DNA from: Vibrio vulnificus CMCP6
GTDB taxonomy: Bacteria > Pseudomonadota > Gammaproteobacteria > Enterobacterales > Vibrionaceae
Assembly (NCBI RefSeq): GCF_000039765.1
Contig: NC_004459.3
Location: 30,001 to 62,000 of the forward strand
Direction: 5' to 3'
DNA length: 32,000 nt
The notes beneath the pieces were generated by a model. It was not told the origin of the DNA and did not search any database. It saw nothing but the letters and a program-made list of their open reading frames with translations. Shown piece after piece: positions 16,830 through 32,000 of this stretch. Position 1 is the first letter of the stretch, and the number at the start of each line of letters is the position of its first letter. The translations under genes were made by a program, and so were the position numbers.

Positions 16830-19800
16830 CTAGTGGTTTTGGTTACGAGTTCGCCATACACCTAGTAAACCAAGAATAACAACCATCACTCCACCTATCC
16901 CGCCGCCAGAGGAGCCGCTGGAACTGGAGCTTGCCACCACTGCCGTTGTTGCTAACACGGTGATCGTAACTCGTCCTTGCGCTGTGGCGCCTTCAGAATC
17001 CGAGACGGTGTAATGCAAAGCCACCTCACTGGTGGATGCCATCTCTTCAGGTGCTTGATAGCGAATCTGATTGTCAATAAGCGACACGCTTCCGAAGGTC
17101 GGCTGTGATACTTGGGTTATTTGCAACGTTTGCCCATCGTGATCGCTGTCGTTAGCCAGTGGCGTGATATCAATACGCTCTCCGACCTTAACCGACACAT
17201 GATCATCTTGCGCCACTGGTGGTGTATTGACGATAACAATCTGCACATGATCGCTGTGACTCAGTCCACTTGGATCGCTCGCTTCTAACGTAAACGCAAA
17301 CACATCTCCCATACGAGCCGAAGCTGGAATCGTAAACTGCGCGGTGTCACTATCGGTTCCACTCAGGGAAACCGAAGGACCAAACGTCTGTCGCCATTGA
17401 TAGTTCAGAGGGTCTCCATCCGGATCTTGCGTCGTCGTCCCGTTTAGCTGTACACGCTGACCAGCAATCAGTTGACTTGCTTGCACATCAACGTTCACTA
17501 CAGGAGCAACATTATCGCCGACAACGACTACCTCGACGTTTGCAACGTCAGAGATCATTCGTCCATCCGCGGTTTGCAACCGATAGCTGAAACGATCTGA
17601 ACCCACAAAATAAGAGGGAGCAGTGTACGTTAAGCCACTCAAACGGCCATGTTGTGGCTGAGTAACAATGTGTACTTCCACTTGCCCTGCCAAGGTGGCG
17701 TCAATGCGATCGTTGCTGGTCAGCATGAGTTGCAGTGAGCCATTTTTGCTGACTTCAACGCGATCATTCACCGGTAGCAATAGTTCGCTGATGTCTCTGT
17801 CCAGCAGCGCGGCAAAAGGAATGAGATGATATGGCAGTAATTTATTCATGCCGTCACTGCTGCTGGTTTGCGAATTTCCTAACCAGATGGTTTTACTTCC
17901 TTCCGGTTCCATATTTTGGAGTTCACTAAACTGATAGTTTTGCTCCAGTTGCGCGTTCGTCAGCTCAATGACTAACGTATGCGACCCCATAGACAGTTTC
18001 GCAGGGGCATCAAATAACAGGCGACCATTACCAAACGTCGAGCCTTGGGCAAGCACGATACGCTCAGCTGGGTTGAGCACCAAAGAAGCAAAATTGGCAT
18101 TTGATACCGGGTAACTTGCCACCACATACTCAACGGGCTGAAGTGCATTGAGTACTTGGTAATAAAGCTGCACCCCCTCCAATACCGAATCTGAATTTAG
18201 CGTGACAGCAAATGCGGCACTGTTCTTCTCCGCTTCACTGACAACATAGCTACGACGAAGACTGGTCATCCAAGCGAAATCATACCCTTCAACAGGGCGA
18301 CGAAAGAGGAACGAAGCAAACGCATCTGAACTCGCAATATTATTTAGGCTCACGCCAGTGGCAAAGCCAGTGATTGACGTTAACGAGGGGTGCGAGCTAT
18401 CACTAATAAGGCTATTTTGGCTATCACCAGGATACACATCCGCGCCGTCAGTCCAGCCGCCATTCTCAAGCTCAGCTAAGCCATCCGCTTGCATGATCTG
18501 CACTTGCATCGGGCCTATATGGTTAAAAGCATGATTGATGTTAACAGAGGTCACTAATACCCCTTCCGCTGTCAACGCTCGATCGTAATCCTGCTTGCGG
18601 CGGTTCTCGACATACAAACGCGGACCAAATTCTTGTAGATAGGGGTCAAGATTGACGATGGCCGCTTGCTGATTAACGATTTGTACGTCGTTGTCTGAGC
18701 TTGTCAGGATCTGTGGATTGATGAAGCCAGCCGCATGTCGGCTCCAAGCACTCATATTCACAGGAGTCTCTCCTGCATACAGATCGCCCTCTTTCATTGC
18801 CCAAGAACCTGCGCCCATTACCCCCCAAGATCCCACTGAACCTTTGTGGTTATAAGAATAAAGGTCTGGTAGATCGAGCATGAGATGGCCAAGCTCATGC
18901 ACAATCACCCCCAAGGTGGATTGATGGTTGACTTGATAATCGGCAAACAAGCAGTAGGCAGAAATGTGCTTACCATCGACATAAACCGTGTTGTGGAAAT
19001 ACATGTGCGGCCAAATTGCAGGCTTCGTGAGCACACCGGTTGAGCGGTCTCCACCAGCAAAAACAAACATCACCGACAGCTCAGTTGGGTCGATAGAGCC
19101 GTCGCGGTTGAGATCGTAGGTCGAAAAATCCACATATTGGTCGATCAGTCGGTATGCTTCACTAAAGATGCTGTTCAAACGATTGGTACAAATTTGGCTG
19201 TCGTGACAATTCGGATGCTGCTGTGAAACCCGAATGCTGATCACGCCGTCATTTGCCGTACCATAGGTTTCTTGAGCTGGTACAACGCGATACTGGCCAA
19301 AAGAGTTTTTGTCGTAGTAATCCACCACACTTTGGTTGACGTCACTGAACACCAACTCTGTAAAATCATGATCCATCGAAATGTTGCTAAACGACACCTG
19401 CACAACCAACAACGGTTGCTCAAACGGCTGCGCTCGGGAAGCGAAAGCGGAACGTGTTGAAAAAAGAGTTTGCTGCAGCGAACGAGAGCGTTGAGTAACG
19501 GGGCGATCCGGCAGACTGGCGTGAGATGGCGTCACTTGTAACGCCGAGCGATCTTGAGCCGAAAGAGGAGGCTGCGAGTCGGCCAATTTTGCATCGCCAC
19601 TCGAAATCAGATAAGGCTTAGCACCGTCGTTTTTTATTTCTGCGAAAAACCATGTATCTTGCTGTTGAATCAGTGCATTGCCTTGCTCGTCTTCATACCA
19701 ATGGAAATCCGCATTACCCGTTAAGCGCACTTTCGTTGAAGAGCCGTCACTTAATTCGACATCATGCCAAATCGGCGCTGGTGGCACCGTTGCCGTTGCA

Positions 19801-19847
19801 GAGGCAGACAGTGCCAAAGCAAGCGTAAAAATCAGCCATTTGTTCAT
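16830..19847 (-). CDS. Secreted M6-family (immune inhibitor A-like) zinc metalloprotease with C-terminal Ig/cadherin-like repeats and GlyGly-CTERM sorting domain
   Basis: 1005 aa with signal peptide MNKWLIFTLALALSASATA. HExxH zinc motif VIVHELGHLMLDLPDLY (HELGH = 18885-18899). PKD/cadherin-like segments (DPDGDPLNYQWRQ; PPVAQDDHVSVKVGERIDITPLANDSDHDG). Tail SSSSSGSSGGGIGGVMVVILGLLGVWRTRNQNH. Confidence 0.85.
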   Translation of the reverse strand: MNKWLIFTLALALSASATATVPPAPIWHDVELSDGSSTKVRLTGNADFHWYEDEQGNALIQQQDTWFFAEIKNDGAKPYLISSGDAKLADSQPPLSAQDRSALQVTPSHASLPDRPVTQRSRSLQQTLFSTRSAFASRAQPFEQPLLVVQVSFSNISMDHDFTELVFSDVNQSVVDYYDKNSFGQYRVVPAQETYGTANDGVISIRVSQQHPNCHDSQICTNRLNSIFSEAYRLIDQYVDFSTYDLNRDGSIDPTELSVMFVFAGGDRSTGVLTKPAIWPHMYFHNTVYVDGKHISAYCLFADYQVNHQSTLGVIVHELGHLMLDLPDLYSYNHKGSVGSWGVMGAGSWAMKEGDLYAGETPVNMSAWSRHAAGFINPQILTSSDNDVQIVNQQAAIVNLDPYLQEFGPRLYVENRRKQDYDRALTAEGVLVTSVNINHAFNHIGPMQVQIMQADGLAELENGGWTDGADVYPGDSQNSLISDSSHPSLTSITGFATGVSLNNIASSDAFASFLFRRPVEGYDFAWMTSLRRSYVVSEAEKNSAAFAVTLNSDSVLEGVQLYYQVLNALQPVEYVVASYPVSNANFASLVLNPAERIVLAQGSTFGNGRLLFDAPAKLSMGSHTLVIELTNAQLEQNYQFSELQNMEPEGSKTIWLGNSQTSSSDGMNKLLPYHLIPFAALLDRDISELLLPVNDRVEVSKNGSLQLMLTSNDRIDATLAGQVEVHIVTQPQHGRLSGLTYTAPSYFVGSDRFSYRLQTADGRMISDVANVEVVVVGDNVAPVVNVDVQASQLIAGQRVQLNGTTTQDPDGDPLNYQWRQTFGPSVSLSGTDSDTAQFTIPASARMGDVFAFTLEASDPSGLSHSDHVQIVIVNTPPVAQDDHVSVKVGERIDITPLANDSDHDGQTLQITQVSQPTFGSVSLIDNQIRYQAPEEMASTSEVALHYTVSDSEGATAQGRVTITVLATTAVVASSSSSGSSGGGIGGVMVVILGLLGVWRTRNQNH

Positions 19848-20041
19848 TCTTAACCCTAACTCCCTTTAAGATATCGCTCGGCTCTGTGGTCAATCCAAGA
19901 CACACCAATGTAGTAACTCAAGCCGAGAAATCAATGAGGTTTTATAAAATACGCGAATCGTTTGGCAAAATAATCCATCTTGAATAAGTAAAAACGTAAT
20001 AAAGTGTAATCTTGATGACAACCGCGTTGAAAGATAAAGAA

Positions 20042-20061
20042 AAAGGCCCTGATGGGCCTTT
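20042..20061 (-). terminator. Intrinsic terminator after the minus-strand tailoring operon (symmetrical hairpin)
   Basis: aaaggccc (20042-20049) / tgat loop / gggccttt (20054-20061). On the - strand it is followed by uuuucuuuauc, about 70 nt after the stop at 20130. Confidence 0.75.
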
Positions 20062-20129
20062 TCCATTTACTCGCTATTTAGGCTAAAAAGACGATCTCTT
20101 TCTTCTCCTTAGGGTGCAGATGATTCCGT

Positions 20130-21386
20130 TCAAAGCGCTGTTTCAGTGCGCAGCTCGCGAACAAACTCCGCCAAGCTTGCCAGTCGGCGTCTCGATTCTT
20201 TGACATAAGGGTTACTCTCATCCCACGCGTAACCAGCGAGAATAGAAGAGATCATCTGCTTGATGCGCGGGTTAGGATCGTCAAAGAAAATCACCTCTTG
20301 CAAAGTGCCGTCATACCAACCTTCAACATAGGTGCGGAAGGTATTCACCCCGACCATCAAAGGTTCGGCATACGCTTTTTGCCAATCGACCACTTTACCG
20401 GCCAACTGTTTCTCAACGCACTCTACGGCAAATTGTGCCGACTTCATCGCAATCGTGACACCGGAAGAGAACACCGGATCAAGAAACTCACCCGCATTGC
20501 CTAGCAACGCATAATGTGGTGTTGCTAAGTGCTTAACATTGGCCGAGTAGCCGCCTAATTCGCCAGCAGGATTCGGGTATTGCGCCTTCTTCAGCAATTG
20601 AGCGAGCCCTGGTTCTTCTGACGCCAGTTGCTGGAGCGCTGCTAACTTATCATCTGGATAATTTTGGAAAAACTCTGGAGTGCCAACCACGCCAAAAGAG
20701 CAAACACCATTGGAAAACGGTATCAACCAATACCAGACATCGGCGTTTTCAGGATGAACCGAAATCAAGATCTTATCACGGGTATAAGCGATGCCATCGC
20801 CATCGATATTATCGACGATGTGAGTAAAAATGGCTTTCCTCGGAGGTAAACAAGAAGGCTCTTCCAAGGCCAGTAATTTTGGCAACACTCGTCCAAACCC
20901 ACTGGCATCGAGTAAATAATCGGCTTCAATTTGATAGGCTTGACCGTGTTCGTCCGTCACCACAAGCCGTGACTTGCTGCCCTCAAAGGTCACTTCCGTT
21001 ACTTCATGCTGGTAACGAATCTCTACCCCTTGACGCTGCGCATCATCTGCCAACACTTTATCGAACGTCGCTCTTTGTACTTGAAAGGTCGTGCCAGGGC
21101 CGGGCGTAAACTTATCGGTAAAGTCGAACTCGGTATAGACACCTTGCTTGCGAAAGGCAGCACCATTTTTAAATTGAAAACCATGCTGATTCACGGCGTC
21201 TAACATGCCTGCCTGTTCAACCACTTCCATACAAGCCGGCAGCAAACTCTCCCCAATCGAAAAGCGGGGAAATTGCGCTTTTTCTAACACAATGACTTTG
21301 ATGCCACGCTGGTGTAACAGCGCAGAGGCGGTCGAGCCAGAAGGGCCCGCACCAATAATGACAACCTGGGTGGATTGCTTTTCCAT
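20130..21386 (-). CDS. FAD-dependent oxidoreductase of the flavin-dependent halogenase type
   Basis: 418 aa. N-terminal dinucleotide fold VVIIGAGPSGSTASALL, then RFSIGESLLP, and a WxWxIP motif (WYWLIP, residues 218-223, nt 20718-20735). Confidence 0.75.
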   Translation of the reverse strand: MEKQSTQVVIIGAGPSGSTASALLHQRGIKVIVLEKAQFPRFSIGESLLPACMEVVEQAGMLDAVNQHGFQFKNGAAFRKQGVYTEFDFTDKFTPGPGTTFQVQRATFDKVLADDAQRQGVEIRYQHEVTEVTFEGSKSRLVVTDEHGQAYQIEADYLLDASGFGRVLPKLLALEEPSCLPPRKAIFTHIVDNIDGDGIAYTRDKILISVHPENADVWYWLIPFSNGVCSFGVVGTPEFFQNYPDDKLAALQQLASEEPGLAQLLKKAQYPNPAGELGGYSANVKHLATPHYALLGNAGEFLDPVFSSGVTIAMKSAQFAVECVEKQLAGKVVDWQKAYAEPLMVGVNTFRTYVEGWYDGTLQEVIFFDDPNPRIKQMISSILAGYAWDESNPYVKESRRRLASLAEFVRELRTETAL

Positions 21387-21410
21387 ACTCAGTGTAATTC
21401 CTGATTTTCT

Positions 21411-22481
21411 TTATTGTTTTGCAACCAATTTGAGCAAAGTGTGGCCTAATCCGATATTGTCGGTACGCTCCACAACCTCAAGTCCGGCTTCTTCAACGAT
21501 TTGCAAGAAATCTTCGCTTCGATAGAAACGACTGTTACCATTCGCTAAACAGGTAAAGTAAAGCGAGGTTGCGTTTAGGCTATATGAAGCGGCATCATAT
21601 TTCTGTGCATCGCAAAACAGTTCAAGAATATACACTATAGAATTCTGTTGAAGGTTCTCCTTTACGCGCTTGAGTATGCTCAATATTTCCATCGGCGAAA
21701 AACAGTCTAAGAACTGGCTCATCCACCACACGTCCGCGTTTTGCGGTAAGGATTCATTCTTATCAAGCATGTTCGCAGGGAAAGGAGCAATACGCCCCGA
21801 AAAACCTTGTTTATCGGCATTGGCCATCGCGAGTTCAAGCTGACGAGGTAAGTCCACAATCGTCACTTTGACATCAGGATCATAGTTACAGCACTGCAGC
21901 GCCCATTTTCCGGTATTGCCACCAATATCGACGATGTGTTGTGGTTTCTCCGTAAACACCGTCTCCAGCAAAATCGGGAATGAGCGATCAGAATAGTAGT
22001 GATCAAACTTAAACCAGCTCTCTTTTGCTTTTTCAGGTAGGCGAGACAAACCTTCGTAAATGGTGACCCAGTCACCAAGTTCTTTGAGGCCCGCCGGCTT
22101 GCCTTCTTGAATCGCTTCCGTCAAATGCATCATCGCGGCGTAACAGACGTCGGCGGTGAAATCCATGTTGGCTTGAGTCATGCCATCATGAAGAAGGAAA
22201 TGGCCCAAGTTTGCCAAGATATAGTTAGGTTTTTTCCACATCACAACATGAGCACTCAGTGCCATATCAAGCAGTACTTTTACCCCATATTCTGAGACTT
22301 GAGTTTGCTCAGCAATTTGTTCTGCGGAGAGCCCTTCTTCCCCGGCTTTATCTAAGGCAGCCAGGATTCCAAGATCTCTGAGAGTGCGAGCGGTATGAAA
22401 AAGAATAGGAGCAAATGAAAGTTTCTGAGCTTCTGTTTTCGCTTCGAAAGCGTTATACGGATCAAAATTATGATTTAACAC
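21411..22481 (-). CDS. SAM-dependent methyltransferase (family-2 O-/C-methyltransferase architecture)
   Basis: 356 aa. N-terminal winged-helix/dimerisation-like region and SAM motif I (HIVDIGGNTGKWA) followed by an acidic loop (VTIVDLP). It lies 24 nt upstream of the halogenase-like gene. Confidence 0.8.
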   Translation of the reverse strand: MLNHNFDPYNAFEAKTEAQKLSFAPILFHTARTLRDLGILAALDKAGEEGLSAEQIAEQTQVSEYGVKVLLDMALSAHVVMWKKPNYILANLGHFLLHDGMTQANMDFTADVCYAAMMHLTEAIQEGKPAGLKELGDWVTIYEGLSRLPEKAKESWFKFDHYYSDRSFPILLETVFTEKPQHIVDIGGNTGKWALQCCNYDPDVKVTIVDLPRQLELAMANADKQGFSGRIAPFPANMLDKNESLPQNADVWWMSQFLDCFSPMEILSILKRVKENLQQNSIVYILELFCDAQKYDAASYSLNATSLYFTCLANGNSRFYRSEDFLQIVEEAGLEVVERTDNIGLGHTLLKLVAKQ

Positions 22482-22511
22482 GAAAAAACCTAACTAACTG
22501 TTAAAAAGAAA

Positions 22512-22901
22512 TTATTGCGCTGCGACTAGCGCAAATTGACGTTGAATATCAACATTTAAGTTGTTGATCCAGCGATTGTAATTACGATGGATATTGCCAT
22601 CACTTGCATTCAGATTCTCTGATTTAACGTAAAGAATTGAGTAATATTTGTCGTCGTAAGGGATCATTATTTCTGCAAAATGCGAGCGAAGATTCAATTT
22701 TGCGCTTAAAACGCCAGGTTCCACTTCGGTAATCGCCCAACCCCTTTTCGTTGCTGCCAAGACGATCGCGCTTTTCACTTGTTTACTTTGAAGATCATAA
22801 CTGACTGGAGTATCCTGTATCTCCAAAATTGGTTGTACTCGACCACAGCCAACTAATAACAACGTCAAACATATAGAAATAAAAATTTTAAAGGTTTTCA
22901 T
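22512..22901 (-). CDS. Small lipoprotein of unknown function
   Basis: Start moved to the internal ATG at 22901 (RBS aaggacaatcta). This gives MKTFKIFISICLTLLLVGC with lipobox LVGC, 129 aa. I recognised no family. Confidence 0.6.
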   Translation of the reverse strand: MKTFKIFISICLTLLLVGCGRVQPILEIQDTPVSYDLQSKQVKSAIVLAATKRGWAITEVEPGVLSAKLNLRSHFAEIMIPYDDKYYSILYVKSENLNASDGNIHRNYNRWINNLNVDIQRQFALVAAQ

Positions 22902-22945
22902 TAGATTGTCCTTATTTTTTGATAAGGGCTTTAGTATGAACGCCA

Positions 22946-23698
22946 ATGGAAACAAATCAACAATCTATGTCAAATTCATCACTATCTCTTTGTGTAAATA
23001 TTGAAAAATGGTATGCGAACTCTCCTGGATTGGATAATAAAGAGCGCTGGCTAGAGTGGGCAAATACCGGAAGCTATCCTGAATCTTTCGATATTACGGC
23101 AAGTAATATACCGGCGATGATGAGACGCCGAATGAGTTCGTTAAGCAAACTGGCGGTGCACGCTGCCATTGAGTTGCTTAACCAAAACGACGTTGACTAT
23201 ATGGTTTTTTCAAGCCGTCACGGAGAATTACACCGCAGCATCGCCTTAGTCAAAGATATATTACTGGGTGAAGAAGCCTCACCAATGGCTTTTTCTCAAT
23301 CGGTACATAACACGGCGGCGGGATTAACCACCATTGCAACCAAAAAGCCTATTCCACTGACGTCGATTGCCGCGGGGAAAAATACATTCCTGAGCGCGCT
23401 TACAGAGGCTTACCTATTTTTGTCTATCCACCCAGATGCCAAAGTGTTATTAGTAGACTTCGACGAACCATTGCCACAAGACTATGCGGAATTTGAAACA
23501 CAAACGTATCGCGGTTATGCACTCGCGATGATCGTGAGCACGGGACAACAATTTGCTATCGAGGCCCATTCCGCTCAGCAGCCACAAGAGCATGAGTTGC
23601 CGCAAGCGCTGCAATTTTTCCGCGGTTTCCTCCAAGAGCAGGTCACACAATGGTCAATCACTGGCTCTCGCCAAACGTGGACATGGCATAAAAAGTGA
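22946..23698 (+). CDS. apeC: Beta-ketoacyl synthase-like protein, chain-length-factor type (ApeC-like)
   Basis: 250 aa with no obvious active-site Cys motif. The N-terminal IEKWYANSPGL...W..W pattern and its position directly before the acyltransferase/ACP/ACP genes match APE clusters. An alternative start is ATG 22967. Confidence 0.65.
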   Translation: METNQQSMSNSSLSLCVNIEKWYANSPGLDNKERWLEWANTGSYPESFDITASNIPAMMRRRMSSLSKLAVHAAIELLNQNDVDYMVFSSRHGELHRSIALVKDILLGEEASPMAFSQSVHNTAAGLTTIATKKPIPLTSIAAGKNTFLSALTEAYLFLSIHPDAKVLLVDFDEPLPQDYAEFETQTYRGYALAMIVSTGQQFAIEAHSAQQPQEHELPQALQFFRGFLQEQVTQWSITGSRQTWTWHKK

Positions 23699-24453
23699 AA
23701 AAACTGAATCAATATTGGCGGGTGTTTGCAACAGGCTTTTGCTTTGCGACCTTTGGCATTGGTGGTCTTATTCTCGGCTTGGTCATTATTCCACTGATTC
23801 ATTTGTTCATACGTGAGCAAACCGCGAGAGAATATAAAGTACAACATACAATTAAATTCACTTTTACGCTGTTCTGCAAACTGATGAAATACACTGGCGC
23901 GATCGACTATAAAATTACCGGTGGTGAGATTCTTGCCGCCGATAAAAATTGCCTTATCGTCGCCAATCATCCCAGCCTGATCGATTATGTGTTAATTGCC
24001 TCGCAGTTACGCCAATGCGATTGCTTAGTTAAAGCCTCTATTTGGCAAAATCCTTTTATGAAATATGTTGTACAAGGAGCAGGCTACATACCCAATAAAT
24101 CACCGGATGATCTTCTCAACCAATGCGAACAACGATTTGAACGCGGCAATGTATTATTGGTATTTCCCGAAGGGACACGAACGACCCCAGGAGTGAAGTC
24201 GCAATTACAACGCGGTGCTTCTCAGATCGCGATTAGGACCGAACGAGATTTACGCATCGTGCACATCACCGTTACCCCTAGTTTCTTGACCAAAGAAAAA
24301 ATGTGGTACCAAGTGCCTGAAACTAAACCGTTCTTTCACGTTGAGGTGAAACATAAGGTTGAGGTAAAACCATTTATAGAGCAAACTAATAACCCAACGT
24401 CAGCAGCCAGAAGACTGAATACACATTTGGCTGAGGCAATCTTCCCTGAGTAA
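23695..24453 (+). CDS. apeD: Lysophospholipid (1-acyl-sn-glycerol-3-phosphate, PlsC-type) acyltransferase (ApeD-like)
   Basis: 252 aa. N-terminal TM segment, HX4D motif (NHPSLIDY) and FPEGTR motif. The GTG start overlaps the apeC stop (GTGA). Confidence 0.85.
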   Translation: MKKLNQYWRVFATGFCFATFGIGGLILGLVIIPLIHLFIREQTAREYKVQHTIKFTFTLFCKLMKYTGAIDYKITGGEILAADKNCLIVANHPSLIDYVLIASQLRQCDCLVKASIWQNPFMKYVVQGAGYIPNKSPDDLLNQCEQRFERGNVLLVFPEGTRTTPGVKSQLQRGASQIAIRTERDLRIVHITVTPSFLTKEKMWYQVPETKPFFHVEVKHKVEVKPFIEQTNNPTSAARRLNTHLAEAIFPE

Positions 24454-24547
24454 GCCAAAAGATGTCTCTCCGATTTTGCCCAAGCAATATTGTTTTTGCT
24501 TATTTCAGGTTTCATTTTCCAAAATCAGTAAATATAAGTAGGTCCCA

Positions 24548-24808
24548 GTGGAAGTACTACAAAATGAAATTAAACAACTGATCATCGATGCACTCAATCT
24601 AGAGGACATCTCGATTGATGATATCGACACTGAAGCACCACTGTTTGGTGATGGCTTAGGTCTCGATTCAATCGATGCATTAGAACTTGGTTTGGCTATT
24701 AAGAAGAAATACAACATTGTTATTGATGCAGATGACAATAATACTCGTCAGCACTTTGCTTCTGTGGCAAATTTGGCAAACTACATTTCTTCACAAACCG
24801 GAAATTAA
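24548..24808 (+). CDS. apeE: Acyl carrier protein (ApeE-like)
   Basis: 86 aa with phosphopantetheine attachment motif GLGLDSIDALEL. GTG start, with a 94-bp gap upstream. Confidence 0.85.
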   Translation: MEVLQNEIKQLIIDALNLEDISIDDIDTEAPLFGDGLGLDSIDALELGLAIKKKYNIVIDADDNNTRQHFASVANLANYISSQTGN

Positions 24809-24824
24809 TTAAGCAGGCCCTGAT

Positions 24825-25079
24825 ATGTCAGAAGTTAATCAACAAGCCGTATTTGAGCAGGTTAAAGCCGCTCTGATTGAACTATTTGAACTAGAAGAAG
24901 ACGACATCCAACCGGATGCTCATCTTTATCAGGACCTAGACCTGGATAGCATTGATGCCGTTGATCTGGTCGTTCATCTGCAGAAAGTGACAGGAAAGAA
25001 AATCCAACCCGAAGAGTTTAAAGCGGTACGCACGGTTCAAGACGTCGTTGACGCTGTCGTTGAACTTGTAAAGGAATAA
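24825..25079 (+). CDS. apeF: Acyl carrier protein (ApeF-like)
   Basis: 84 aa with motif DLDLDSIDAVDL. It is the second ACP, in tandem with the first. Confidence 0.85.
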   Translation: MSEVNQQAVFEQVKAALIELFELEEDDIQPDAHLYQDLDLDSIDAVDLVVHLQKVTGKKIQPEEFKAVRTVQDVVDAVVELVKE

Positions 25080-25082
25080 GAG

Positions 25083-25640
25083 ATGCGCACATTGCTGACA
25101 GTTTTGTCTGCAATTGTATTGCTTACCTACCCTTTTGCCGTCTATTTCGGTATCGATAAGCTTGGCTTAGAAGTGGTCGCACTCCTTTTAGGCATTGTGT
25201 TTCTGCTCAGAATCCTTTCCGGCCATCAAGCCAAGCTTAAAGAATTCAAACAACTTGCGGTGATAAGCGGAGTGATCGGTGTGATGCTGGTTACGCTAGG
25301 CGCGATATTCAAACAGCAAGGTTGGCTGACGTTTTATCCCGTGATCGTTAACCTCGCCATGTTGACGCTTTTTGCCTCGAGTTTAACTCAGCCTCAAACG
25401 ATTATAGAGCGATTGGCTCGTCTACAAGAGCCCGAGTTACCCGAAAGTGGCGTTCGTTATACTCGCACAGTCACGAAAGTGTGGTGTTGGTTTTTTCTCA
25501 TCAATGCAAGTATCGCTTTATACACCTGTTTTCAATCACTACAGGTGTGGACACTGTATAACGGCTTGATTAGCTATTTAGCCGCCGGAAGTTTATTTGC
25601 TGGGGAATGGATCGTTCGCCAGTTTGTTCGCAAGGACTGA
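25083..25640 (+). CDS. apeG: Integral membrane protein of unknown function (ApeG-like)
   Basis: 185 aa with about five hydrophobic helices. Its position between the ACPs and the AMP-ligase matches APE clusters. Confidence 0.6.
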   Translation: MRTLLTVLSAIVLLTYPFAVYFGIDKLGLEVVALLLGIVFLLRILSGHQAKLKEFKQLAVISGVIGVMLVTLGAIFKQQGWLTFYPVIVNLAMLTLFASSLTQPQTIIERLARLQEPELPESGVRYTRTVTKVWCWFFLINASIALYTCFQSLQVWTLYNGLISYLAAGSLFAGEWIVRQFVRKD

Positions 25641-25647
25641 GCATTAG

Positions 25648-27015
25648 ATGAGTCACCCTCTACCATTTCATTCACTCGCCACGTTGTTTCATCACGGCAG
25701 AGCTCCACGACACCAAGTCGCGTTTTCCCTGAATGAACACCATGATTGGTCATCGTTCACGTGCCACGTGCATTCACTTTGCGAGCAATTGAAGCAAACA
25801 GAAGCTCCACGAGTTGCCCTGTGCGCCGCCAACAGCTACCAATTTGCCATTGGTTTTTTTGCGCTGTGTTTTAGTGGCAAAGCCATTGTGTTACCTGGAA
25901 ATTATCAACCAGCGGCGTTGAATGAGCTCAGTTGCGAGTTTGATCTCTTATTGTGTGATGAGGAAGTGGGAAGCCACTTGCGCCAAGCGTACCAATTAAT
26001 ATCGGACACGCACAGCACGTGCAAACCCGCCTTGTTTCCACACTTGTCACTTGAACAAGTGGTGCTCACCTTATTTACCTCGGGCTCCAGTGGAACACCA
26101 AAGGCGATTCGCAAAACGCTGCAACAGTTAGATAGTGAAATCGCTGTGTTAGAGCAATTGTTTGGTCAGCAGTTACAAGACTGCCGCATTGAAAGCACCG
26201 TTTCTCATCAACATATTTACGGTTTGCTTTTCCGTGTACTTTGGCCTCTTTGTGCAGGTCGTGCCTTCGCTCAAACCAACTTAGAGTATCCCGAACAGCT
26301 TGTCGCACACGCCAGTGACCACACCGCGCTCATCAGCAGCCCTGCACTGCTTAAGCGATTAACCTCCGAGCATCACTCTTCGCCATTTGCGTGTGTCTTT
26401 TCATCTGGCGGCCCGTTAAGTTACGAAGCGGCGATGCACGCTCAAACGCTGTTTTCACAGACACCTTGGGAGGTGTTCGGCAGTACAGAAACGGGGGGCA
26501 TTGCTTGCCGTCAACAGCATCAAGCCAACACACCATGGCAACTCTTTCCTGGCATTGATGTCGAGCTCAATCAAGAGAACTGTTTGCGTCTGCGCTCTCC
26601 GCACATTGATGGAGAGAACTGGTATCAAACCGCCGACGAATGTGAAATGGTCAGCGAACGTCAATTCTTGTTGAAAGGGCGTACCGATCGCGTGATCAAG
26701 CTGGAAGAGAAGCGAATTTCACTGGTCGAAGTAGAAAAGCGCCTTGATCATCTCGACTGGATTAACGAAAGCGTGGTCATCCCCATGACAGAATCTGACA
26801 GATTAACCTTGGTGGCTGCGATAGTATTAACCTCAGCAGGTACAGCGAAACTCAATGAGCTTGGTAAAGGCAAGTTTTGGCTTATGCTGAGAGGGGAATT
26901 GCGACAATGGTTAGAGCCGATCGCCATTCCACGTCGCTACCGAGTTGTCAGTGAAATTCCTTTGAACAGCCAAGGGAAGAGACTGACCAACCAAATAGAA
27001 CAACTTTTTCATTAG
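25648..27015 (+). CDS. apeH: AMP-dependent acyl/aryl-ACP (CoA) ligase (ApeH-like)
   Basis: 455 aa. Adenylate-forming motifs TSGSSGTPKA and FGSTETGG, with a C-terminal GK (NSQGKRL). Confidence 0.85.
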   Translation: MSHPLPFHSLATLFHHGRAPRHQVAFSLNEHHDWSSFTCHVHSLCEQLKQTEAPRVALCAANSYQFAIGFFALCFSGKAIVLPGNYQPAALNELSCEFDLLLCDEEVGSHLRQAYQLISDTHSTCKPALFPHLSLEQVVLTLFTSGSSGTPKAIRKTLQQLDSEIAVLEQLFGQQLQDCRIESTVSHQHIYGLLFRVLWPLCAGRAFAQTNLEYPEQLVAHASDHTALISSPALLKRLTSEHHSSPFACVFSSGGPLSYEAAMHAQTLFSQTPWEVFGSTETGGIACRQQHQANTPWQLFPGIDVELNQENCLRLRSPHIDGENWYQTADECEMVSERQFLLKGRTDRVIKLEEKRISLVEVEKRLDHLDWINESVVIPMTESDRLTLVAAIVLTSAGTAKLNELGKGKFWLMLRGELRQWLEPIAIPRRYRVVSEIPLNSQGKRLTNQIEQLFH

Positions 27016-27027
27016 AACGAAAACACT

Positions 27028-27399
27028 ATGAGTACAAAAAGAAAGCCAACCGTTCTTGCCAGTCAGGTCGACGGACACAGTGCCACATTACAGCTGCGCG
27101 TTGATCATGATCTGCTGGATTTTTCTGGTCATTTCACTCACTTTCCCTTGCTACCGGGTGTCACACAAATCGACTGGGCGATGTTCTATGGTCAAACGCT
27201 GTTGCAGTGCCCTGCCGCATTTAAAGGAATGGAAGTCATCAAGTTCCAAGAACCCATTCTGCCCGATGCGCAAGTAACACTCTCGCTCGTTTGGGATGAG
27301 AGCAAAGCGAAACTGCAATTTAGCTATACATCCTCTCGAGATGGCGAACGTGTATCTCACTCATCAGGCAAGATGAAACTAGGGGCGAGCAGTGACTGA
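27028..27399 (+). CDS. apeI: Hotdog-fold dehydratase, FabA/FabZ-like (ApeI-like)
   Basis: 123 aa with the FabZ-type motif FSGHFTHFPLLPGV. Confidence 0.75.
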   Translation: MSTKRKPTVLASQVDGHSATLQLRVDHDLLDFSGHFTHFPLLPGVTQIDWAMFYGQTLLQCPAAFKGMEVIKFQEPILPDAQVTLSLVWDESKAKLQFSYTSSRDGERVSHSSGKMKLGASSD

Positions 27400-29101
27400 C
27401 TATCAAGCTTGTTTTCTCATCCCTTGTTACAACCATGGTGAAACCATTGGTCAGGTGATCGACTCGCTGCAAGAGTTTGCGCTGCCAGTGATCATCGTTG
27501 ATGATGGCAGCAATTTCGCCACACAAACGCAACTCGAGCAGCAAGCAACACGCGACAAGGTATACCTGATCCGCTTAGCCGAAAACCAAGGCAAAGGCGG
27601 CGCCGTCATGGCGGGTATCCGCTATGCACAACAACTTGGCTTTACGCACACCATTCAAATCGACTCGGATGGGCAACATGATCTGCAAGCGCTGCCAAAG
27701 TTGCTAAACGCCTCAAAAATGCATCCTCAGCGCTTGATATCAGGGCAGCCAATTTATGACGAGAGCGTCCCTAAATCTCGCTTGTATGGCCGTTACGTGA
27801 CTCATGTTTGGGTGTGGATTGAGACACTCTCCATGAGCATCCAAGACAGCATGTGCGGCTTTCGCGCCTACCCAGTGGACAAAACCGTCGCGGTTTTGGA
27901 CAAATATCGCCTTGGCACACGCATGGATTTTGACATCGAAATCCTCGTTCGCATGTACTGGGAAGGGGTGGACATTGATTTCATTGAAACTCGCGTGATC
28001 TACCCTGAAGGTGGCATTTCGCATTTTGATGCGCTTTGGGACAACGTTAAAATCAGTTGGATGCATACGAAGCTCTTTTTTGGCATGCTGCCAAGAGCCC
28101 CGAAGTTGATGATGCGCAAACATCCTGATGCGAAAAACAATGTGCATTGGTCCAAGCAGCAAGAGCGAGGCACGGTACTGGGCATTAAACTGCTGCTAGC
28201 GGTCTACTCGCTGCTAGGGCGAACGACCTTCAATCTGATCTTGCGTGTTGTGATGGCTTATTATCATGCGACGGGCAAACAAGCCAAGCAAGCATCGCAA
28301 CGCTATCTCGACCAACTGGAGCAATACGCCAGAGAAAAGCGTATTGAACTCCCGGATAATCTCACCAGTTACAACCATTTGCTCTCTTTTGGCCATACCA
28401 TGCTGGATAAACTGGCGGCTTGGAAAGGCGATTTTTCAGCGCAAAATTTGACTATCCACGGGCAAAATCAGTTCGACAAAATGATTGAGAACCAGCAAGG
28501 TGTGGTTATTCTCGGTTCGCATTTGGGCAACATTGAGCTGTGTCGAGCCTTAAGCCGACGTCATACCCACGTCAAAATCAATGCCTTGGTCTTTACTGAG
28601 CACGCAGAGCGTTTTAATGCGGTGATGAAAGCGGTTAACCCCAATTCTGAGCTCAATCTGATTCAAGTGAGCCATTTGGGGCCTGATACCGCTATCTTGC
28701 TACAACAGAAAATTGAGCAAGGCGAATGGGTCGTCATTGTGGGTGATCGCACCTCCACCAGCAAAGAAACACGCGCCGTTTGGGCTGATTTTCTTGGCAA
28801 GCCTGCCCCATTCCCACAAGGGCCATTTATGTTGGCTTCGATTCTCAAAGCGCCTGTGTATTTACTCTTTGGCCTGCGTGACGATTCCAGCAGTACCCCC
28901 CATTTTGATGTCTACTTCGAACATTTTAGCGACAAAATTGTTCTGCCTCGCAAAGAGAGACAAACCGCTTTGGAAATGGTTGTGCAACAGTACGCACAAC
29001 GTTTAGAACATTACACACTGCAGGCTCCTCTGCAGTGGTATAACTTTTTTGATTTTTGGAACCTAACAGATCAGCAACATGACGATGCAAGCAGAAAATA
29101 A
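27392..29101 (+). CDS. apeJ: Fusion protein: family-2 glycosyltransferase (N-terminal) plus LpxL/HtrB-type lipid A-class acyltransferase (C-terminal) (ApeJ-like)
   Basis: 569 aa. GT2 motifs VIIVDDGS and QIDSDGQH; central TM region; C-terminal HX4E acyltransferase motif GSHLGNIEL. The GTG start overlaps the apeI stop by 8 nt. Confidence 0.8.
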   Translation: MTDYQACFLIPCYNHGETIGQVIDSLQEFALPVIIVDDGSNFATQTQLEQQATRDKVYLIRLAENQGKGGAVMAGIRYAQQLGFTHTIQIDSDGQHDLQALPKLLNASKMHPQRLISGQPIYDESVPKSRLYGRYVTHVWVWIETLSMSIQDSMCGFRAYPVDKTVAVLDKYRLGTRMDFDIEILVRMYWEGVDIDFIETRVIYPEGGISHFDALWDNVKISWMHTKLFFGMLPRAPKLMMRKHPDAKNNVHWSKQQERGTVLGIKLLLAVYSLLGRTTFNLILRVVMAYYHATGKQAKQASQRYLDQLEQYAREKRIELPDNLTSYNHLLSFGHTMLDKLAAWKGDFSAQNLTIHGQNQFDKMIENQQGVVILGSHLGNIELCRALSRRHTHVKINALVFTEHAERFNAVMKAVNPNSELNLIQVSHLGPDTAILLQQKIEQGEWVVIVGDRTSTSKETRAVWADFLGKPAPFPQGPFMLASILKAPVYLLFGLRDDSSSTPHFDVYFEHFSDKIVLPRKERQTALEMVVQQYAQRLEHYTLQAPLQWYNFFDFWNLTDQQHDDASRK

Positions 29102-30623
29102 TATTACCTTTGGCCAAGGCAGACTGACGATTGAGGATGTTGCGGCGATCGCTCAAGGCGCAAAGGCCACGTTAAACAACTCAGTTGAATTTACCGCCAA
29201 AATCGACCGCGGTGTCGCCTTTCTAGAACGCCTTCTTAAAGAAGAAGGGGTGATCTATGGCGTCACCACTGGATACGGCGACTCTTGTACAGTCGCGATA
29301 CCGCCTCAATTGGTTGAAGAATTGCCCCTTCACCTAACGCGCTTTCACGGCTGTGGCTTAGGCAAAATTCTCACCCATGAGCAAGCGCGCGCGGTGCTTG
29401 CTACACGTCTGTGTTCTTTATCACAAGGCGTTTCGGGCGTAAGTCATGACTTACTTAATCAGATCGTAACTTTGATTAATCACGATATTTCACCTCGCAT
29501 TCCTGAAGAAGGTTCGGTAGGGGCCAGTGGCGATCTGACTCCCCTTTCCTACCTTGCTGCAGCGCTGGTTGGTGAGCGAGAAGTGATCTACCAAGGTGAA
29601 GAGCGTGCAACCGCCGAGGTTTACGCCGAACTGGGCATCCAACCGATTAAACTGCGTCCTAAAGAGGGCTTGGCGCTCATGAACGGCACATCAGTGATGA
29701 CCGCGTTAGCTTGCCTTGCCTACAAACGCGCGGAGTATCTAGCGCAGCTCAGCACCAAAATCACCGCAATGGTCTCTGTGGCCATGCACGGTAATGACTT
29801 CCATTTTGATGAAGCGCTCTTTGCAGTCAAACCTCATCCTGGCCAACAACAGATCGCCGCTTGGTTGCGAGATGACTTGAAAGCCGATAAGCCACCACGC
29901 AACAGTGACCGTCTGCAAGATCGTTACTCATTACGCTGTGCGCCGCACGTGATTGGTGTTGTCCAAGATTCACTACCTTGGTTGCGCCAAATGATCGAAA
30001 ACGAGCTCAACAGCGCCAATGACAACCCAATCATCGATGGTGACAACGAACGTGTTTTACACGGCGGTCACTTCTATGGTGGTCACATTGCCATGGCAAT
30101 GGACACACTGAAAACCGGTATTGCCAACCTCGCGGATCTGCTCGATCGTCAAATGGCACAATTGATGGATTACAAGTTCAACAATGGCTTACCATTTAAC
30201 TTGAGCGGTGCCGAAGGGGAACGCAAGCCCATCAACCATGGCTTTAAAGCGGTGCAAATTGGTATTTCTGCCTGGACCGCAGAAGCGCTCAAGCACACCA
30301 TGCCTGCCAGTGTATTCTCGCGCTCTACCGAGTGTCACAACCAAGACAAAGTGAGCATGGGGACTATCGCTGCCCGCGATTGTTTGCGAGTATTGGAACT
30401 GACCGAACAGGTGGCAGCCGCGTCTCTACTTGCTGCAACGCAAGGGATCGAAATTCGCCGCCGTCGTGGTGAACTGGACGAAAACCACATGAGCGATCGC
30501 CTAAAAGCCATCTGCAGCTCGGTACTCAATGAGTTTGAATTTGTCACTGAAGATCGCCCATTGGAAAAAGATCTACGCCAGTTCATCGCTCACATTCAAC
30601 AGCGTCATTGGTCACTGTATTAA
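29079..30623 (+). CDS. MIO-dependent aromatic amino acid ammonia-lyase (HAL/PAL/TAL family); substrate not assignable
   Basis: 514 aa. MIO-forming triad in GSVGASGDLTPLSYL (Ala149-Ser150-Gly151, nt 29523-29531), plus GYGD, NGTS, YSLRCAPHV, QDKVSMG. The start overlaps the apeJ end by 23 nt (17 nt if Met3 is used). Confidence 0.88.
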   Translation: MTMQAENNITFGQGRLTIEDVAAIAQGAKATLNNSVEFTAKIDRGVAFLERLLKEEGVIYGVTTGYGDSCTVAIPPQLVEELPLHLTRFHGCGLGKILTHEQARAVLATRLCSLSQGVSGVSHDLLNQIVTLINHDISPRIPEEGSVGASGDLTPLSYLAAALVGEREVIYQGEERATAEVYAELGIQPIKLRPKEGLALMNGTSVMTALACLAYKRAEYLAQLSTKITAMVSVAMHGNDFHFDEALFAVKPHPGQQQIAAWLRDDLKADKPPRNSDRLQDRYSLRCAPHVIGVVQDSLPWLRQMIENELNSANDNPIIDGDNERVLHGGHFYGGHIAMAMDTLKTGIANLADLLDRQMAQLMDYKFNNGLPFNLSGAEGERKPINHGFKAVQIGISAWTAEALKHTMPASVFSRSTECHNQDKVSMGTIAARDCLRVLELTEQVAAASLLAATQGIEIRRRRGELDENHMSDRLKAICSSVLNEFEFVTEDRPLEKDLRQFIAHIQQRHWSLY

Positions 30624-30631
30624 GAGGTTCT

Positions 30632-31078
30632 ATGACAGACGTACTTTATCCACTAGAAGCTGAGGTAACTTTGGTGACCTCGTTTCAAGATGCCGACCCT
30701 ATGGGGGTTATCTATCACGGTAATTACTTCCGATTTTTTGAAGAAGCAAGACGTGTGATGATGGAGAAAATCGATTATGGCTATCAACAAATGAGCGCGT
30801 CAGGATTCATGTGGCCAGTGATTGATGTTCAGGTAAAGTACGTCCGAGCCATTCCTTTTAATCACGCAATTCGCGTCAAAGCGACGCTGAGCGAATGGGA
30901 AAATCGCTTACGAGTGCATTATCAAATCTTTGATGCCGCCACTGGGCAACGCATGTGTAAAGCGCATACCACTCAGGTCGCCGTCAGCATTGAAGATCAA
31001 GAGATGCGATTAGCATCGCCCTCGGTGTTTCTCGAACGCGTCCATCAATGGCATCAAAACGGAGCGTACCTATGCTAA
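30632..31078 (+). CDS. apeK: 4HBT/YbgC-type hotdog thioesterase (ApeK-like)
   Basis: Start set at ATG 30632 (RBS aagagg), 8 nt after the lyase stop. The tracked TTG start at 30608 would overlap the lyase gene. Motif DADPMGVIYHGNYFRFFEEAR. Confidence 0.8.
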   Translation: MTDVLYPLEAEVTLVTSFQDADPMGVIYHGNYFRFFEEARRVMMEKIDYGYQQMSASGFMWPVIDVQVKYVRAIPFNHAIRVKATLSEWENRLRVHYQIFDAATGQRMCKAHTTQVAVSIEDQEMRLASPSVFLERVHQWHQNGAYLC

Positions 31079-31704
31079 TGTCATGGCGACAACACACGCT
31101 CACTTTGTGGCTACTGGTTTGCACACTGTTTTCTCCGCTGAGCTGGGCCCAAGTGAGCAACCTAGATGAATTGCAAGCGCAGCTTTCCAAACACGATCTG
31201 GTGCGAGGCCAGTTCACCCAACAACGCCATTTGGAAATGTTTAACCAACCCTTGAGTTCTCAAGGGCAATTTGTGTTAGACAAAAGCCATGGTCTGTTGT
31301 GGCAACAACAAACCCCCTTCCCTGTGAATTTGGTTTTAACGCAAGACAAACTGCGACAAAATTTTGCTGGGCAAGCACCACAAGTGATCACGGCAGAGCA
31401 AAACCCAATGGCGTTTTACTTCAGCCGCATTTTTCTCTCCGTGTTTCATGGAGATACCTCCGCTTTGCAGCGCGAGTTCGAGTTGACGTTACACGTTGAC
31501 GACAATGGATGGCAGCTCGACCTGACACCGACGGCAGCCCCTTTAAATGCGGTATTCAGCAAAATTACCCTCAGAGGTAACGAAGAAATTGACCAACTGG
31601 AACTGGTGGAAAAACGTGGCGATCGCACCGATATTCAATTTTCACAGCAAACGCACACCCCAGAACAGTTGAGCGAAACGGAGCAAAAGCAGTTTGCGTT
31701 TTAA
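31072..31704 (+). CDS. apeL: LolA-like outer-membrane lipoprotein carrier family protein (ApeL-like)
   Basis: Start set at ATG 31072 (RBS ggag, 7-nt overlap with the apeK stop). This gives signal peptide MLMSWRQHTLTLWLLVCTLFSPLSWAQ. LolA-type block LVRGQFTQQRHLEMFNQPLSSQGQFVL. Confidence 0.75.
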   Translation: MLMSWRQHTLTLWLLVCTLFSPLSWAQVSNLDELQAQLSKHDLVRGQFTQQRHLEMFNQPLSSQGQFVLDKSHGLLWQQQTPFPVNLVLTQDKLRQNFAGQAPQVITAEQNPMAFYFSRIFLSVFHGDTSALQREFELTLHVDDNGWQLDLTPTAAPLNAVFSKITLRGNEEIDQLELVEKRGDRTDIQFSQQTHTPEQLSETEQKQFAF

Positions 31705-32000
31705 ATCCCCGACGTTAGCCGTTAGCTGGCTTATGGCCGTGATCATGGCCGGTTTGTTGCTGAGCTATCTCTGGTTTGCGCAAGCAACGGCGCCAATCGA
31801 AACCGATATTTTAAAACTGCTGCCTAAAAATCAGCAAAATCCAGTAGCAGAACAAGCGTTTGAGCGCATTGCGGAGACGATGGGCAACAAGGTGATTTTT
31901 ATCGTATCGGGCGATGAGATCGATAAAGTTTACCAAGCAAGCGATGCGCTCACACAGCAGCTCACTCAAAGCGGTTATTTTGCCCAAGTGATGGGCCAAA
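31694..32000 (+). CDS. apeM: MMPL/RND-type exporter, N-terminal fragment (ApeM-like); continues beyond window
   Basis: Not in the ORF track because there is no stop. The frame is open from 31673 to 32000 and reads (M)RFKSPTLAVSWLMAVIMAGLLLSYLWFAQATAPIETDILKLLPKNQQNPVAEQAFERIAETMGNKVIFIVSG... That is a TM helix followed by a periplasmic segment. The start is uncertain: TTG 31694 (ggag 10 nt upstream) or ATG 31733. Confidence 0.6.
   Translation, partial: MRFKSPTLAVSWLMAVIMAGLLLSYLWFAQATAPIETDILKLLPKNQQNPVAEQAFERIAETMGNKVIFIVSGDEIDKVYQASDALTQQLTQSGYFAQVMGQ

Follow-up and report, generated by a model that had tools for sequence, protein, structure and literature searches.

The DNA analysed here, called the window, is a 32,000-nucleotide stretch of the Vibrio vulnificus CMCP6 genome (assembly GCF_000039765.1, contig NC_004459.3, forward-strand positions 30,001 to 62,000). 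Its right-hand part, from position 20130 to 32000, holds two divergent groups of genes that we assign below to an aryl-polyene (APE) pigment cluster. Genes were called from a listing of open reading frames (ORFs) together with Pfam and NCBIfam scans of the window proteins. The APE cluster of Escherichia coli CFT073 (apeA-apeR, c1204-c1186) was taken from RefSeq and compared by BLASTP with the V. vulnificus cluster proteins; the identities to E. coli given for single genes come from this comparison.

The plus-strand group opens with apeC (22946..23698), which encodes a ketosynthase-like chain-length factor (CLF; PF13723 Ketoacyl-synt_2, 227 bits; its E. coli counterpart ApeC, annotated 'chain length factor' in RefSeq, is 34% identical). 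It is followed by apeD (23695..24453), for a PlsC-type lysophospholipid acyltransferase assigned to lipid-anchor attachment (PF01553; 45%), and by the genes of two acyl carrier proteins (ACPs) with PP-binding domains, apeE (24548..24808; NF006617, 95 bits) and apeF (24825..25079; NF003757, 134 bits), each product being 64% identical to its E. coli namesake. Next come the small membrane protein ApeG (25083..25640; 51%, with a weak sub-cutoff IspA-like Pfam match) and ApeH (25648..27015; AMP-binding; 37%), an adenylating acyl-ACP synthetase predicted to load the aromatic starter, for which a PDB search returned nothing useful. The hotdog 3-hydroxyacyl-ACP dehydratase ApeI (27028..27399; PF22818 ApeI-like, 81 bits; 43%) precedes ApeJ (27392..29101), a fusion of a family 2 glycosyltransferase (GT2) and an LpxL-type acyltransferase (PF00535 Glycos_transf_2 and PF03279 Lip_A_acyltrans; 48% over 567 aa). 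Between apeJ and apeK lies the gene (29079..30623) of a 514-aa aromatic amino-acid ammonia-lyase (AL) of the 4-methylideneimidazole-5-one (MIO) type. The group ends with the hotdog thioesterase ApeK (30632..31078; 4HBT_2; 51%), the LolA-like periplasmic carrier ApeL (31048..31704; LolA and LolA_3, with a sub-cutoff LolA2_flexi match of 82 bits; 39%) and about 100 codons of the N-terminus of the MMPL/RND exporter ApeM (31694..32000; weak HpnN/RND match; 34%).

The minus-strand group starts next to apeC with apeA (22512..22901), whose 129-aa product is 48% identical to E. coli ApeA, an entry named 'lipoprotein'. This gene is called in same-species contigs, and a TTG at 22955 would allow a longer ORF; searches of Pfam, NCBIfam and the PDB gave no match. 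It is followed by apeB (21411..22481), a methyltransferase of the FlxJ family dependent on S-adenosylmethionine (Pfam Methyltransf_2 and Dimerisation2-like; 52%) and the presumed ring C-methylase, and by the gene of a FlxK-like, flavin-dependent halogenase-like protein of 418 aa (20130..21386; Pfam FAD_binding_3 and Trp_halogenase), hereafter the flavoprotein. Just 3' of the latter, on the same strand, an intrinsic-terminator-like hairpin (20039..20064; 11-bp stem with 6 GC pairs, followed by a T-run) is the predicted left edge of the cluster. A first-pass annotation, made from the letters of the window, had described this gene content and order, from the CLF to the MMPL exporter with divergent methyltransferase and flavin-halogenase-like genes, and Pfam bears it out; apeA had been overlooked.

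The apeC/apeD junction reads GTGA at 23695, and overlaps are found between apeI and apeJ (8 nt), apeJ and the AL gene (23 nt), apeK and apeL (31 nt), and apeL and apeM (11 nt, from a TTG start of apeM). Among the coupled junctions listed in the first-pass annotation, the GTGA and the 8- and 23-nt overlaps hold, whereas the supposed 7-nt overlap does not exist: apeG and apeH are in fact separated by 7 nt. The start of apeK is most likely the ATG at 30632, preceded by GAGG and placed 8 nt past the AL stop; an alternative TTG start lies at 30608. The start codons of apeA and apeC are 44 bp apart (22902-22945). This gap contains an inverted repeat with a 9-bp stem at 22908-22929 (GTCCTTATTTTTTGATAAGGGC), which could be an operator, and a promoter scan of the same 44 bp gave sites no more numerous than in shuffled sequence.

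The rest of the cluster can be read from other isolates. Proteins 100% identical to the AL are recorded for V. vulnificus on hundreds of contigs, and positions 19079-32000 of the window align with three contigs that carry the exact AL (L081-L083) with 165-177 mismatches over 12,922 bases (98.7% identity). Downstream, these contigs encode the full ApeM (769 aa, MMPL, PF03176), ApeN (DUF3261), the ketosynthase (KS) ApeO, the ApeP-like dehydratase (DH), the ketoreductase (KR) ApeQ and a further KS, ApeR. The KS, KR and DH genes expected beyond position 32000 are thus present, as apeO, apeP, apeQ and apeR. ApeO (from L081) carries the active-site motif TACSS and is 48% identical to E. coli ApeO, and in the ApeC sequence the active-site cysteine motif [AS]C[AS][ST] was not found. 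The closest locus from another species (L001) has the identical downstream gene set. By the same-species contigs, the cluster ends about 6.2 kb beyond the window, so that apeM, interrupted by the window end, is the 15th gene of 20 and the window covers the left two-thirds of the cluster.

In the gene-by-gene comparison with E. coli CFT073 that had been suggested as a check, all 18 proteins ApeA-ApeR find their best matches in the same order in V. vulnificus, with identities of 32-71% (ApeN, 32%; ApeC, ApeM and ApeP, 34%; ApeQ, 68%; ApeR, 71%). The APE type and the apeC-to-apeM order proposed earlier are upheld by these colinear orthologues. We hold with high confidence that the region 20130-32000 comprises the first 15 of the 20 genes of the V. 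vulnificus APE outer-membrane pigment cluster, in the usual Vibrionaceae layout.

Genes left of 20039 are unrelated to the cluster: they encode an M6 peptidase, a methyl-accepting chemotaxis protein, SelO, a two-component system, and ATP-binding cassette (ABC) and tripartite ATP-independent periplasmic (TRAP) transporters. The immediate neighbour (16830-19847, minus strand) is a 1005-aa secreted-type M6 metallopeptidase, immune inhibitor A-like, with PKD, cadherin-like and Big_9 domains; a homologue stands at that position in none of 80 related loci, so this neighbourhood is specific to V. vulnificus. On the far side, apeR is followed on the opposite strand by a two-component system (L081 19437-21333, some 6.5-8.4 kb beyond the window), with one gene for a HisKA sensor kinase and another for an OmpR-type response regulator.

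We scanned one genome per species with the AL protein as query, which yielded 213 relatives, and kept the best 80 loci. They come from Vibrio, Photobacterium, Enterovibrio, Grimontia and one Psychromonas metagenome-assembled genome (MAG), with no Aliivibrio among them; their contents were determined by tblastn with all window proteins. In 72 of the 80 loci, all from other species, apeC to apeM are colinear with the AL gene between apeJ and apeK, which shows that the gene organisation is real and not due to chance. Every one of these 72 has the divergent methyltransferase, 62 have apeA adjoining apeC and 52 have the flavoprotein. In the 20 others nothing of the cluster follows the methyltransferase gene, whose next neighbour in V. 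mediterranei, for instance, encodes an adenylosuccinate synthetase. The loci were retrieved with the AL as query, which biases any estimate of how often Vibrionaceae APE clusters contain an AL; what they do show is that this layout is common in Vibrionaceae and no peculiarity of the V. vulnificus locus. The 'non-standard tailoring and starter set' of the first-pass annotation was therefore an overstatement: the methyltransferase is the canonical ApeB orthologue, and the AL and the halogenase-like protein are found in 72/72 and 52/72 colinear loci, respectively.

The best conserved protein of the cluster across the 80 loci, by a wide margin, is the AL, with a median identity of 87% against 52% for ApeC and 57% for ApeH. 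Between genera its identity stays at 83-90%, with 56% of positions invariant, while that of ApeC ranges over 41-60% and that of ApeH over 48-63%. ApeE is distinct in 67 of 79 species.

Several loci depart from the common layout. In four Photobacterium loci (L053, L055, L060 and L065; e.g. L055 1058-2026) an opposite-strand gene for a 322-aa alpha/beta-hydrolase stands between the methyltransferase and the halogenase-like gene. Decay of the halogenase gene, considered for these four loci, was rejected: the short matches are locus-edge cuts owing to the intervening hydrolase gene. In the Psychromonas MAG (L066 1731-2967), alone among the loci, the methyltransferase and halogenase-like genes appear to have changed places, and about 800 additional bases between apeC and apeD, which may be an insertion, set one locus (L015 2818-4402) apart from its sister loci of the Splendidus clade. 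Photobacterium makurazakiensis and P. lutimaris (L061 6830-14030 and L073) have a second, compact cluster of CLF, ACP, ApeH-like ligase, ApeI-like DH, AL, KS, ApeP-like DH and KR, devoid of attachment and export genes and of ApeR; its AL has the same Phe-His pair as the V. vulnificus enzyme at the selectivity switch discussed below and is 83-84% identical. A still smaller form (L076, L080 and L069) consists of a glycosyltransferase-family-3-like gene (an assignment for which Pfam was run on L076 only), CLF, ACP and AL. L076 and the full cluster L064 share one contig.

The MIO ammonia-lyase that the first-pass annotation had placed between apeJ and apeK is indeed there, with a PF00221 Lyase_aromatic score of 548 bits. 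Its MIO triad (Ala149-Ser150-Gly151), the catalytic Tyr60, Asn-Gln-Asp 421-423 and Phe89-His90 are invariant in 81 Vibrionaceae sequences. It stays below every NCBIfam equivalog cutoff among the HutH, FlxA, BagA, phenylalanine ammonia-lyase (PAL), phenylalanine aminomutase (PAM) and tyrosine aminomutase (TAM) models (scores/cutoffs: hutH TIGR01225, 404/539; histidine ammonia-lyase (HAL) subfamily, 414/524; FlxA NF053541, 363/700; BagA, 428/1000). The selectivity switch is His-Leu in classical tyrosine ammonia-lyases (TALs), Phe-Leu in PALs and Ser-His in HALs. The classical RsTAL-type His-Leu is not found in the V. vulnificus AL, whose Phe-His switch matches no characterised TAL, PAL or HAL known to us. 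Ser-His is seen at this place in an aligned tyrosine aminomutase and in a FlxA-like AL of a Bacteroidota flexirubin locus. A second motif holds Glu in HALs and Gln in TALs and PALs (PMC3992019). Because of Gln422 at this motif, the sub-cutoff hutH score, the MIO triad and Tyr60, we class the AL as a Tyr/Phe-type lyase and not as HutH. The flexirubin-cluster enzyme FlxA is a TAL that prefers Tyr over Phe 1010-fold despite its HAL-like switch, and the authors of that work consider ammonia-lyase specificity not readable from sequence; tyrosine provides the flexirubin ring and the adjacent double bond (PMC3992019). As for the loader, the 4-coumarate-CoA ligase model TIGR02372 matches V. vulnificus ApeH with 104 bits and E. 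coli ApeH with 75 bits, both sub-threshold. This likeness was rejected as a clue to the starter, since E. coli ApeH matches similarly.

The flavoprotein shows the hallmarks of flavin-dependent halogenases (GxGxxG, Lys73 and WYWLIP), in agreement with the earlier designation as halogenase-like. Its motifs are GAGPSG at 12-17, K73, aligned with the catalytic Lys76 of CndH, WYWLIP at 218-223 and GNAGEFLDPVFSSG; the region of the second flavin adenine dinucleotide (FAD) motif reads GNAGEFLDPVFSSG296. WxWxIP and the catalytic Lys are retained in all full-length homologues examined. The best PDB match is 3nix, an uncharacterised flavoprotein (364 bits), followed by the halogenases Mpy16, CndH, ChlB4, PltA, Bmp2 and CmlS. 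Among NCBIfam models the best match is CmlS, with 126 bits against a cutoff of 900, and no halogenase equivalog cutoff is reached. The nearest homologue of 3nix itself (97%, metagenome contig L085 10001-11242) has no polyene or lyase genes within 10 kb, unlike the homologue in the Aurantibacillus flexirubin-type locus (L086) described below.

From these assignments a pathway can be proposed. The AL would deaminate an aromatic amino acid, to judge from its context most likely tyrosine, to yield 4-coumarate; ApeH, by homology to its Xenorhabdus counterpart, would adenylate the aromatic acid and load it onto an ACP. ApeR would initiate the chain, the KS/CLF pair ApeO-ApeC would elongate it and set its length, and ApeQ (KR) with ApeI and ApeP (DH) would process the polyene, all by homology. 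The ring would be C-methylated by ApeB, as its characterised homologues suggest (PMC8253772), and the FlxK-like flavoprotein may halogenate it, going by context and motifs only. Homology further predicts release of the acid by ApeK, its attachment to a lipid anchor by ApeD and ApeJ, and export of the product to the outer membrane by ApeL, ApeM and ApeN. The most likely overall scheme is a flexirubin-like starter supply (Tyr to 4-coumarate) that feeds an APE line of the E. coli type, in which the ring would be C-methylated and perhaps also halogenated. As for the product, the earlier guess of an aryl head that derives from a cinnamate-type starter and is methylated, halogenated or both seems reasonable.

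By analogy with flexirubin biosynthesis, we favour, with moderate confidence, the view that the AL supplies the starter by converting tyrosine to 4-coumarate. Several points weigh against it. The Phe89-His90 switch agrees neither with classical TALs (His-Leu) nor with FlxA (Ser-His); the AL shares only 36% identity with the FlxA-like AL and is below every equivalog cutoff; and the 4-coumarate-ligase likeness of ApeH, sub-threshold and common to E. coli ApeH, does not discriminate between starters. Alternatively, the pathway could start from 4-hydroxybenzoate, like those of E. coli and Xenorhabdus, and the AL could have some other function. If the AL were instead a PAL, the starter would be cinnamate and any ring hydroxyl would be added later. 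The first switch residue, Phe89, is indeed that of PALs and invariant in the 81 sequences, and FlxY-type and other ligases take cinnamate in vitro (PMC3992019). However, His90 is the second switch residue of the Tyr-specific FlxA-like lyase and of the aligned tyrosine aminomutase, and known APEs and flexirubins bear a 4-hydroxyphenyl head derived from the precursor (PMC8253772, PMC3992019). The cluster, moreover, has no hydroxylase besides the halogenase-like flavoprotein, whose WxWxIP is typical of halogenases and which is missing from 20 loci; we consider a PAL unlikely. Many database entries label the AL 'histidine ammonia-lyase', and the HAL subfamily model does give 414 bits, as if a hutH histidine-utilisation gene occupied the operon by chance and played no part in pigment formation. 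This is very improbable, given the sub-cutoff scores on both models (414/524 and 404/539), the Gln in place of the HAL Glu at motif 2, the same apeJ-overlapping slot in 72 species and the presence of the AL in compact polyene-only Photobacterium clusters. Equally improbable is a non-polyene lipid as the product of the locus, which would make the APE assignment wrong: V. vulnificus is not known as a conspicuously yellow organism, but the locus matches the E. coli CFT073 cluster, which has been studied by experiment, gene for gene and in full synteny, including the ApeI- and ApeP-like DH families and the KS/CLF pair.

That the flavoprotein does not halogenate the pigment, being inactive under normal conditions or having another redox role, so that the product is methylated only, is in our estimate somewhat less likely than not. 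Two observations weigh against halogenation: Cimermancic et al. (2014) reportedly found that the V. fischeri APE made in E. coli was methylated and not halogenated, and 20 of the 72 colinear loci do without the flavoprotein, which marks it as evolutionarily dispensable. In addition, the second FAD motif has GNA where GDA would be usual, a change seen also in 3nix and the Bacteroidota homologue, and the scores lie far under every halogenase equivalog cutoff. On the other hand, the catalytic Lys and WxWxIP are kept in all full-length copies examined, and every one of the closest characterised relatives is a halogenase, with several of them acting on carrier-bound substrates. Flexirubin chlorination patterns vary (PMC3992019), and xanthomonadins are halogenated (PMC8253772); a bromide-dependent enzyme would stay hidden upon expression in E. 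coli in ordinary broth. Going further, one may speculate that in their native marine setting Vibrionaceae APEs are made from Tyr-derived 4-coumarate through a distinct Phe-His-switch AL clade and then halogenated by the FlxK-like enzyme, plausibly with bromine from seawater bromide; we regard this combination as unlikely. If true, V. vulnificus would make a halogenated aryl polyene that is new to Vibrionaceae, and when the V. fischeri cluster was expressed in E. coli in ordinary broth, the halogenation would have been missed.

APE pigments protect Gram-negative pathogens from oxidative stress and promote biofilms (PMC8253772), and V. vulnificus is a serious and heavily sequenced human pathogen. 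A complete cluster of the usual Vibrionaceae type is in this respect a useful annotation, not a discovery. Arylpolyene clusters are routine antiSMASH finds in the Vibrio literature, and that of V. tapetis is about 80% similar, at the protein level, to the V. fischeri ES114 cluster (PMC5825899). Our literature searches found no paper on the ammonia-lyase or halogenase of Vibrio APE clusters.

The E. coli CFT073 cluster shares with that of V. vulnificus the KS/CLF pair, the initiating KS, two ACPs, ApeH, two hotdog DHs, the KR, ApeB and the thioesterase, as well as the two attachment acyltransferases and the LolA-like/MMPL/DUF3261 export set (ApeD, ApeJ, ApeK, ApeL, ApeM and ApeN being colinear); its junctions overlap too (PMC8253772). 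Compared with it, V. vulnificus gains only the AL, in the apeJ-apeK slot, and the flavoprotein, neither of which has an E. coli APE counterpart by BLASTP. In V. vulnificus, moreover, apeA and apeB have the reverse orientation and form a divergent operon, to which the flavoprotein gene is added. The methyltransferase is part of the canonical APE set, since it is an ApeB orthologue (52%) and the FlxJ-family model (FlxJ_fam_MTase, cutoff 560) scores both alike, with 479 bits for V. vulnificus and 470 bits for E. coli ApeB. The supply of the starter differs: E. coli is thought to take 4-hydroxybenzoate from UbiC (PMC8253772), whereas in V. vulnificus a cluster-encoded lyase is the probable supplier. 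The Xenorhabdus doucetiae cluster, of the same ApeA-R type, has been reconstituted in vitro, and Xenorhabdus ApeH was shown to load 4-hydroxybenzoate (PMC8253772).

The APE_Vf cluster of V. fischeri ES114 (VF_0841-VF_0860, MIBiG BGC0000837) comes from the same bacterial family and spans 20 locus tags, against the 20 V. vulnificus genes. Its gene content is probably the same, with ammonia-lyase, methyltransferase and FAD-protein genes. Its product is a 4-hydroxy-3,5-dimethylphenyl polyene. Farther afield, xanthomonadin uses 3-/4-hydroxybenzoate from XanB2, and the alterochromides of marine Pseudoalteromonas are nonribosomal lipopeptides whose pathway has a tyrosine ammonia-lyase alongside a flavin brominase. 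Xanthomonadins and (bromo)alterochromides are both examples of halogenated aryl-polyene acyl chains in Gram-negatives, and their loci are not known to share the ApeA-R synteny.

Flexirubin clusters of Bacteroidota (flxA-flxY of Chitinophaga pinensis and the Aurantibacillus locus L086) likewise encode an MIO ammonia-lyase and share the polyene line resembling type II fatty acid synthesis, the LolA-like, the GT2 and the acyltransferase genes. In C. pinensis, flxJ (methyltransferase) and flxK ('tryptophan halogenase') stand side by side, and flexirubins vary in both ring methylation and chlorination (PMC3992019). The Aurantibacillus locus has an adjacent pair whose products share 49% (methyltransferase) and 41% (flavoprotein) identity with their V. 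vulnificus counterparts; its flavoprotein gene (product 65% identical to 3nix) directly follows the FlxJ-type methyltransferase gene, divergent from a lyase-KR-KS-ACP-acyltransferase operon. Since this pair is related to the V. vulnificus genes and flxJ and flxK are adjacent as well, the methyltransferase-flavoprotein module appears to be shared with flexirubin clusters. Neither dialkylresorcinol genes (darA/darB-type) nor a FlxY-type CoA ligase occur among the window genes or in the 10 kb downstream. The V. vulnificus loader is of the ApeH type and not F390-synthetase-like as FlxY; its AL has a Phe-His and not a Ser-His switch, is 36% identical and stays under the FlxA equivalog cutoff (NF053541); and the gene order is that of E. 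coli. Altogether, judged from its sequence, the V. vulnificus cluster is an ordinary Vibrionaceae form of a well-known family, in which an E. coli-type ApeA-R set is joined by a lyase and by a methyltransferase-halogenase-like module of the kind described for flexirubin clusters.

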